DNA of 64,000 nt, from assembly GCF_003334405.1 (NCBI RefSeq), contig NZ_QOWM01000001.1; one strand, written 5' to 3'. Source of the DNA: Escherichia coli. Its GTDB lineage: Bacteria > Pseudomonadota > Gammaproteobacteria > Enterobacterales > Enterobacteriaceae. This document shows positions 57,925-59,361 of this stretch, piece after piece. A model generated the notes under the pieces. That model did no database searches, was not told the DNA's origin, and saw only the letters and a list, made by a program, of their open reading frames with translations. Every line of letters starts with the position of its first letter. Position 1 is the first letter of the stretch. The position numbers were made by a program, and so were the translations under genes.

Positions 57925-59361
57925 ATGAATCGTGATTCCTTTTATCCAGCCATCGCCTGTTTTCCGCTGTTACTGATGCTGGCCGGGTGTGCGCCTATGC
58001 ATGAAACCCGCCAGGCGTTAAGCCAGCAAACGCCCGCTGCACAAGTTGACACCGCATTACCCACGGCGCTGAAAAATGGTTGGCCAGACAGCCAATGGTG
58101 GCTGGAGTATCACGATAATCAACTCACTTCCTTAATTAACAATGCACTACAGAACGCACCGGATATGCAGGTGGCTGAACAGCGCATTCAGCTAGCTGAA
58201 GCCCAGGCGAAGGCAGTTGCCACTCAGGATGGTCCGCAGATCGACTTTTCGGCGGATATGGAGCGGCAAAAAATGTCGGCAGAAGGCTTAATGGGGCCGT
58301 TTGCTCTGAACGATCCGGCCGCAGGTACGACCGGCCCGTGGTACACCAACGGTACTTTTGGCTTAACGGCGGGCTGGCATCTCGATATCTGGGGAAAGAA
58401 TCGGGCGGAGGTTACTGCCCGCCTGGGTACGGTTAAAGCACGGGCGGCGGAACGCGAGCAAACCCGCCAATTGCTGGCTGGCAGCGTAGCCCGCCTGTAC
58501 TGGGAGTGGCAAACCCAGGCGGCGTTAAACACGGTCTTGCAGCAAATAGAAAAAGAGCAGAACACCATTATCGCGACCGATCGCCAGCTATATCAGAACG
58601 GGATTACTTCTTCAGTTGAAGGTGTGGAAACCGATATTAATGCCAGCAAAACCCGGCAGCAGCTCAACGATGTCGCGGGGAAAATGAAAATTATTGAGGC
58701 ACGGTTAAGCGCACTTACAAATAACCAGACAAAGTCATTGAAGCTTAAACCGGTCGCGTTGCCGAAAGTGGCAAGCCAGCTTCCTGATGAACTGGGGTAC
58801 TCCTTACTGGCCCGGCGGGCAGATTTGCAGGCGGCGCACTGGTACGTTGAGTCATCGCTAAGCACCATTGATGCGGCAAAAGCGGCATTTTATCCTGACA
58901 TCAACCTGATGGCCTTCCTGCAACAGGATGCGTTGCACTTAAGCGATCTGTTCCGTCATTCCGCGCAGCAAATGGGCGTTACGGCAGGCCTGACGCTACC
59001 CATTTTCGATAGTGGTCGTCTTAACGCCAATCTCGATATCGCAAAAGCCGAAAGCAACTTGTCTATCGCCAGCTACAACAAAGCGGTGGTTGAAGCGGTG
59101 AATGACGTGGCGCGGGCAGCCAGTCAGGTTCAGACACTGGCGGAGAAAAACCAGCATCAGGCGCAAATTGAGCGCGATGCCTTGCGTGTGGTAGGTCTTG
59201 CGCAGGCGCGCTTTAACGCGGGCATCATTGCTGGTTCCCGCGTCAGCGAAGCCAGAATCCCCGCGCTGCGTGAGCGGGCCAATGGCCTGTTATTGCAAGG
59301 GCAGTGGCTGGATGCCTCCATTCAACTCACTGGTGCGTTGGGCGGGGGTTACAAACGCTGA
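57925..59361 (+). CDS. mdtQ: Outer membrane efflux protein MdtQ (OMF/TolC family lipoprotein), apparently intact
   Basis: Uninterrupted frame; start taken at MNRDSFYPAIACFPLLLMLAGC (lipobox), 478 aa; the ORF track offers an upstream start at 57835. Confidence 0.85.
   Translation: MNRDSFYPAIACFPLLLMLAGCAPMHETRQALSQQTPAAQVDTALPTALKNGWPDSQWWLEYHDNQLTSLINNALQNAPDMQVAEQRIQLAEAQAKAVATQDGPQIDFSADMERQKMSAEGLMGPFALNDPAAGTTGPWYTNGTFGLTAGWHLDIWGKNRAEVTARLGTVKARAAEREQTRQLLAGSVARLYWEWQTQAALNTVLQQIEKEQNTIIATDRQLYQNGITSSVEGVETDINASKTRQQLNDVAGKMKIIEARLSALTNNQTKSLKLKPVALPKVASQLPDELGYSLLARRADLQAAHWYVESSLSTIDAAKAAFYPDINLMAFLQQDALHLSDLFRHSAQQMGVTAGLTLPIFDSGRLNANLDIAKAESNLSIASYNKAVVEAVNDVARAASQVQTLAEKNQHQAQIERDALRVVGLAQARFNAGIIAGSRVSEARIPALRERANGLLLQGQWLDASIQLTGALGGGYKR

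Follow-up and report, generated by a model that had tools for sequence, protein, structure and literature searches.

An intact mdtQ outer-membrane factor gene in an Escherichia coli genome close to, but distinct from, K-12

The gene mdtQ (yohG) is one of four TolC-type outer-membrane factor genes in E. coli, and its product is best placed by reference to relatives that have been described in more depth. The paralogue MdtP (YjcP) has the same NodT-type lipoprotein outer-membrane factor architecture as MdtQ, although mdtP belongs to the mdtNOP operon, which also encodes an adaptor and a pump, whereas mdtQ has neither beside it (2025 review). By sequence, the closest solved relatives of MdtQ are VceC (1yc9, 1e-39), OprM (1wp1, 1e-23), CmeC, SilC, and CusC (3pik, 2e-21). 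VceC, OprM, and CusC are homologous to MdtQ over their full length, and OprM and CusC share with it an N-terminal lipid anchor; all three, however, are encoded with their cognate pumps and have defined substrates, whereas no pump or adaptor gene adjoins mdtQ. In published work, mdtQ is already described as a core-genome gene of E. coli that is a pseudogene in K-12. Both its pseudogene status in K-12 and its conservation across the species are already in databases and literature, and the finding reported herein is, in that respect, correct and ordinary.

Against this background, we analyzed a 64,000-nucleotide stretch of E. coli DNA (the window), in which mdtQ is open from end to end. We are highly confident of the overall reading, namely that positions 57925..59361 hold a wild-type, functional-looking mdtQ, that the contrast with K-12 comes from a lineage-specific loss of one A, and that the source is a natural phylogroup-A-type strain near K-12.

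Reading frame, start, and family of mdtQ

The mdtQ (yohG) gene of the window is an uninterrupted frame of 1437 nt on the plus strand (57925..59361), comprising 478 codons plus a stop from an ATG, and its product begins MNRDSF. The mechanical list of open reading frames holds one ORF at mdtQ (57835..59361, +), which starts further upstream and encodes 508 aa from a TTG. The first-pass annotation had described an uninterrupted frame and quoted both figures, 508 codons and 478 from the MNRDSF start, and both are correct as counts; the larger describes the mechanical ORF from TTG 57835 only, and the real gene has 478 codons. Over 2.1 kb, the DNA is identical to that of strains 99-3311, FJ_Ec_21, NCTC9040, and NCTC9100, with the same mdtQ length, start, and neighbors (dusC, yohP, mdtQ, yohF, yohD), and the RefSeq annotations of this identical DNA place the start at the ATG (window 57925).

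That the real product is instead a 508-residue protein initiated at TTG 57835 is extremely improbable. All five alleles examined do keep the frame open from 57835, but the curated MdtQ model of 478 positions aligns from 1 to 478 beginning at the ATG, the ATG is the start annotated by RefSeq, and an extension of 30 residues would place the lipoprotein signal peptide internally. The 90 nt upstream of the ATG (57835..57924, +), which are in frame and open from the TTG, carry one substitution among the five alleles, too few for conservation to decide the start; that single substitution would be non-synonymous in the extended frame, and nothing in the stretch gives the TTG positive support. We rejected the TTG start on the family model and on the position of the signal peptide, and the 90 nt are most likely a 5' untranslated leader rather than coding sequence.

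The identity of the gene is well anchored. Specifically, the protein scores 1024.4 bits against the MdtQ equivalog model NCBIfam NF008524 (cut-off 650), with residues 1-478 on profile positions 1-478 of 478, and the coding sequence is 100% identical at the DNA level to RefSeq mdtQ (WP_001078139.1). Because an uninterrupted 1.4-kb frame matches a curated 478-position model end to end, this is a real full-length mdtQ, far beyond chance. The broader NodT outer-membrane-factor subfamily model, TIGR01845, also exceeds its cut-off (274 bits versus 210.05; residues 16-475 on profile positions 4-460 of 460). The gene occupies the orthologous position, as the window order dusC - yohP - mdtQ - yohF - yohD is that of the MG1655, 99-3311, and NCTC9100 annotations. 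Within the protein, a Pfam scan found tandem OEP repeats (PF02321), the first at residues 69-266 (58129..58722, +; E 2.2e-17) and the second at residues 293-473 (58801..59343, +; E 9.8e-13). The lipoprotein signal peptide (57925..57990, +), read directly from the sequence, ends in the lipobox LAGC at residues 19-22 (57979-57990), which is followed by Ala at +2. Under the sorting rule of the Lol pathway, an Ala at +2 after the lipidated Cys directs a lipoprotein to the outer membrane. Cys22 would, on this rule, be the lipidated N-terminus, and the Ala at +2 would imply sorting of MdtQ to the outer membrane.

Reasoning from the family, MdtQ would be made as a precursor lipoprotein whose cleavage and lipidation at Cys22 would precede its sorting to the outer membrane. 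There it would trimerize into a beta-barrel with a periplasmic alpha-helical tunnel, as in VceC, OprM, and CusC, and the channel would provide the outward passage for an inner-membrane pump working with a periplasmic adaptor. This trimeric channel is predicted from homology to the solved channels and from the AlphaFold/TolC superposition published in the 2025 review. An efflux role for MdtQ is suggested by this homology and by weak null-mutant phenotypes that are quoted second-hand.

The K-12 frameshift and the lineage of the window

In the first-pass annotation, K-12 mdtQ was described as a split pseudogene. Its pseudogene status is borne out by the records: b2139 in MG1655 (NC_000913.3) is entered as a 1436-bp pseudogene, and mdtQ carries the note "frameshifted" in W3110 and in an MG1655-derived strain. 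The word "split" overstates the damage, as the lesion is a single-base frameshift. The same annotation had proposed an alignment against K-12, which could have found the K-12 gene identical and intact; it is neither, and aligning b2139 to its counterpart in the window returned exactly two differences, with 1435 of 1437 positions identical. First, K-12 lacks one A of a run of five (A5; 58072..58076, +), formed by codon K50 (AAA) and the first two nucleotides of N51 (AAT), and is thus A4 where the window is A5; the A4 at codons 50-51 that marks the K-12 pseudogene allele is not found in the window. Second, position 59349 (+) is T in the window and G in K-12, a synonymous difference in a glycine codon (GGT versus GGG) that is polymorphic in the species, with T in O157 and WCHEC025157 and G in CFT073 and R12. 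The W3110 sequence (NC_007779.1; extracted locus 2658-4093) is identical to the frameshifted MG1655 allele.

The consequences for K-12 follow from the position of the lesion. The contrast, seen directly in the alignment, arises because a single A at codons 50-51 has been lost in the K-12 laboratory lineage, shifting the frame into a stop after 69 residues, a lesion that the window does not have; the K-12 frame product of 69 aa consists of 50 native residues and 19 out-of-frame ones. In the native frame, translation could restart no earlier than near residue 81. Because this is 3' of the signal peptide, no exported product would be expected from K-12 mdtQ.

Across complete E. coli genomes, the A5 state predominates. 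An 81-nt probe centered on A5 had an exact match in 3,047 of 5,426 genomes, and the K-12 A4 80-mer had an exact match in 355. Of these 355 A4 carriers, 60 were inspected, and each is a laboratory strain derived from K-12, among them MG1655 sublines, C600, DH1, DH5alpha, J53, NCM3722, AG100, HST04, and RR1. We also considered, and rejected, phase variation at the A5 run. A homopolymer of 5 nt is too short for phase variation, and every one of the 60 A4 carriers inspected was a K-12 derivative.

The window as a whole is collinear with MG1655 from 2,286,963 to 2,222,684, in reverse orientation and at 99.98% identity. Over the 64 kb, 10 SNPs, the one-base indel in mdtQ, and a larger deletion separate it from MG1655; from the wild isolate NCTC9100 it differs by 4 SNPs and the same larger deletion. 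Six of the 10 window-MG1655 SNPs, including 59349, are common to the window and NCTC9100, and many natural isolates (from human, pig, chicken, and water) lie within 1-3 mismatches per 25 kb of the window. The strain typing proposed in the first-pass annotation thus has an answer: with 4 SNPs to NCTC9100, the source types as a natural phylogroup-A-type strain that is very close to K-12, but not as K-12. The suggestion that it came from a non-K-12 lineage holds in that it is not K-12, but not in any sense of distance, given the 99.98% identity over 64 kb.

These comparisons also bear on whether the intact gene might be an artefact, the source being a K-12 derivative that gained the extra A through an error of sequencing or assembly in the homopolymer. 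Such an error could look much like what is seen here, as only one base of a homopolymer is at issue, the window and MG1655 are 99.98% identical, and the few private window changes that are absent from other genomes could hint at imperfect sequence. K-12 sublines, however, differ by less over 64 kb than the 10 SNPs that separate the window from MG1655, six of them, 59349 among them, in common with NCTC9100. Further, A5 is the majority state of the species by exact 81-mers (3,047) and is present in every divergent allele examined, and several independent wild isolates match the full 2.1-kb region at 100% identity. We rejected the error on the lineage SNPs held in common with NCTC9100 and give it next to no chance; the reading we retain is that of a genuine A5 allele in a natural strain.

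Several further differences are recorded here for their own sake. At positions 5581, 11364, 22509, 29255, 44268, and 59349 (radD, yejE, setB, psuG, yeiB, and mdtQ, respectively), the window agrees with NCTC9100, and MG1655 differs. These six positions are candidate K-12-lineage substitutions, with polarity looked at for 59349 alone, which is polymorphic in the species. At 8530, 35240, 40763, and 47682, SNPs are private to the window, with MG1655 and NCTC9100 agreeing at all four; one is intergenic (yejG/bcr), and the three that fall in coding sequence are all non-synonymous (Nfo D202H, CirA R284C, and MglA L97V).

The larger deletion lies at window junction 33994-34003, where 281 bp are missing relative to MG1655 (2252680..2252960) and to NCTC9100. 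The missing DNA consists of 271 bp together with a single copy of the 10-bp direct repeat ACGGGCGCTG; with it, nupX has lost its final 66 nt and the convergent yeiI its final 109 nt, along with the repeat DNA between the two genes. After the deletion, the nupX ORF (32819..34138, +) encodes 439 aa instead of 416 and the yeiI ORF (33838..34983, -) 381 aa instead of 362, each truncated gene reading through into the antisense of the other. In a search with the junction, all 30 of the best complete genomes listed match as two pieces 281 bp apart, and the deletion looks private to the source strain. A private deletion alongside three of three non-synonymous private coding SNPs is odd in a near-clonal 64 kb, and laboratory passage or mutagenesis, local adaptation, or sequence errors are possible explanations.

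Constraint, loss, and expression signals

Of 5,426 complete E. coli genomes, 5,407 carry the 2.1-kb mdtQ region at a coverage of at least 80%, and in all of them it is chromosomal. The alleles of four divergent strains (CFT073, O157:H7 PV15-279, WCHEC025157, and R12) are each 1437 nt long, intact, and A5. Among these four and the window allele, most pairs give a Nei-Gojobori dN/dS of 0.05-0.10; the closest pair, with few differences to count, gives 0.22. Given the A5 and A4 counts together with these ratios, we infer that the intact allele is ancestral and under strong purifying selection and that the frameshift is specific to the K-12 lineage. Likewise, because dN/dS of about 0.05-0.10 and retention in 5,407 of 5,426 genomes show selection, MdtQ must be expressed and useful somewhere. 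These comparisons show that selection maintains the protein in nature. The first-pass annotation had offered a non-K-12 lineage or a functional allele as alternatives, and both hold, as the two are not exclusive: the window has 10 SNPs relative to MG1655, and its allele is intact, ancestral, and selectively maintained.

Losses of mdtQ are nonetheless found outside K-12. In strain 600055 (NZ_CM129037.1; extracted locus 526-3311), an insertion of IS421 (IS4-like) splits the gene, and in MRE162 (NZ_CP119400.1; extracted locus 4102-5005), mdtQ and yohF are absent, with IS1B between yohP and yohD. These are two independent inactivations outside K-12, and the gene, having been destroyed independently in K-12, 600055, and MRE162, is dispensable. 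In some Salmonella Typhi and Paratyphi A isolates, mdtQ has also been truncated independently (PMC9241588). Sporadic losses together with strong constraint fit a gene that is useful in nature yet expendable in the laboratory and in certain niches. CFT073 (NZ_CP158446.1; extracted locus 1799-2085) presents the reverse of the K-12 situation at mdtQ/yohF, with yohF annotated as a pseudogene with an internal stop and mdtQ intact.

The immediate surroundings of the gene were mapped onto the window from annotations of identical DNA. Upstream and divergent lies yohP, encoding a small membrane protein (57618..57701, -), and yohF, encoding an SDR oxidoreductase (59414..60175, +), begins 52 nt 3' of mdtQ. 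A terminator scan found no terminator-like site between the mdtQ end at 59361 and the yohF start at 59414, and yohF is possibly co-transcribed with mdtQ. In PMC12719787, yohP is located between dusC and the "mdtQ pseudogene". According to PMC10888264, the repeat TRIP1c follows dusC (yohI) at a distance of 43 bp, precedes the mdtQ (yohG) start by 363 bp, and, together with TRIP1a, mediates chromosomal rearrangements in ~2% of genomes. From these offsets, TRIP1c would fall at ~57289-57562 of the window, between the dusC stop at 57245 and yohP/mdtQ. An 86-aa proline/glycine-rich ORF (57287..57547, -) overlaps this predicted position and is probably a spurious frame across TRIP1c.

Signals for expression of mdtQ are faint. 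A consensus promoter scan of 57240-60300 found 2 promoter-like sites, compared with 3.1 ± 2.0 in shuffled sequence, and is uninformative for mdtQ; inspection of the sequence before the ATG found no obvious Shine-Dalgarno. Because of these two results, expression may be low or conditional. No adaptor, membrane-fusion, RND, or pump gene is annotated in the 64-kb neighborhood in MG1655 or NCTC9100. An adjacent adaptor or pump gene is common for outer-membrane factors and is not defining, as TolC is also without one. The 2025 review describes the mdtQ promoter as lacking experimental confirmation, the gene as encoded independently, and the function of MdtQ as not elucidated.

One could argue from these features that the intact gene is cryptic or very weakly expressed and makes no ordinary contribution to efflux, in which case the K-12 frameshift would be neutral and the allele irrelevant to efflux phenotypes. 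The lack of a clear ribosome-binding site, a promoter signal that does not rise above background and has no confirmed promoter behind it, the orphan position without a pump or adaptor partner, the repeated independent losses, and the normal growth of K-12 without an intact gene would all agree with such a state. The low dN/dS (~0.05-0.10) across phylogroups and the retention of the region in nearly all complete genomes (5,407/5,426) argue against it, and we consider it unlikely. We retain the reading of a wild-type, functional-looking gene.

Implications for efflux studies and comparison with known systems

With the lesion now mapped, current understanding is unchanged, as databases and the 2025 review already reflect the status of the gene. 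The practical implications concern K-12 itself, which is an atypical strain at the mdtQ locus. Efflux results from K-12, Keio-type deletions of the frameshifted gene included, are thus a poor guide to MdtQ in wild or clinical E. coli, in which the gene is intact and under purifying selection. Models of outer-membrane efflux capacity for non-K-12 strains should include four channels of the TolC family rather than three.

A further implication concerns the mdtQ/yohG null-mutant drug phenotypes of Sulavik et al. 2001, for which the parent strain was reportedly W3110. If so, since W3110 carries the frameshift, the phenotypes were not due to loss of full-length MdtQ, and they may reflect polarity on yohF or experimental noise; the mdtQ null phenotype in the literature would then need another explanation. 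Extending this, we put forward only tentatively, as a possibility rather short of an expectation, that the classic phenotypes did not come from full-length MdtQ, that neither what the intact channel really contributes nor its pump partner has ever been measured, and that the window lineage could serve as a near-isogenic background in which a missed efflux or envelope phenotype would show. Were this true, the lineage, at 10 SNPs from MG1655 in 64 kb, would offer a near-isogenic natural background with an intact MdtQ.

Set beside known systems, MdtQ is remote from TolC: TolC has only 12% identity to it (2025 review) and is not a lipoprotein, and the TolC subfamily model TIGR01844 gives 54 bits on MdtQ, against a cut-off of 225. 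The MdtP model covers the window protein over the full length at 356 bits, but this is below the MdtP cut-off of 597, and the protein is not MdtP. The K-12 gene (b2139 of MG1655/W3110) shares locus and synteny with that of the window and differs from it by the A4 frameshift and the synonymous G at 59349. Finally, the MdtQ of non-K-12 E. coli (RefSeq WP_001078139.1; O157:H7 orthologue UniProt Q8X659) represents the same allele as the window, with nothing different in the gene.
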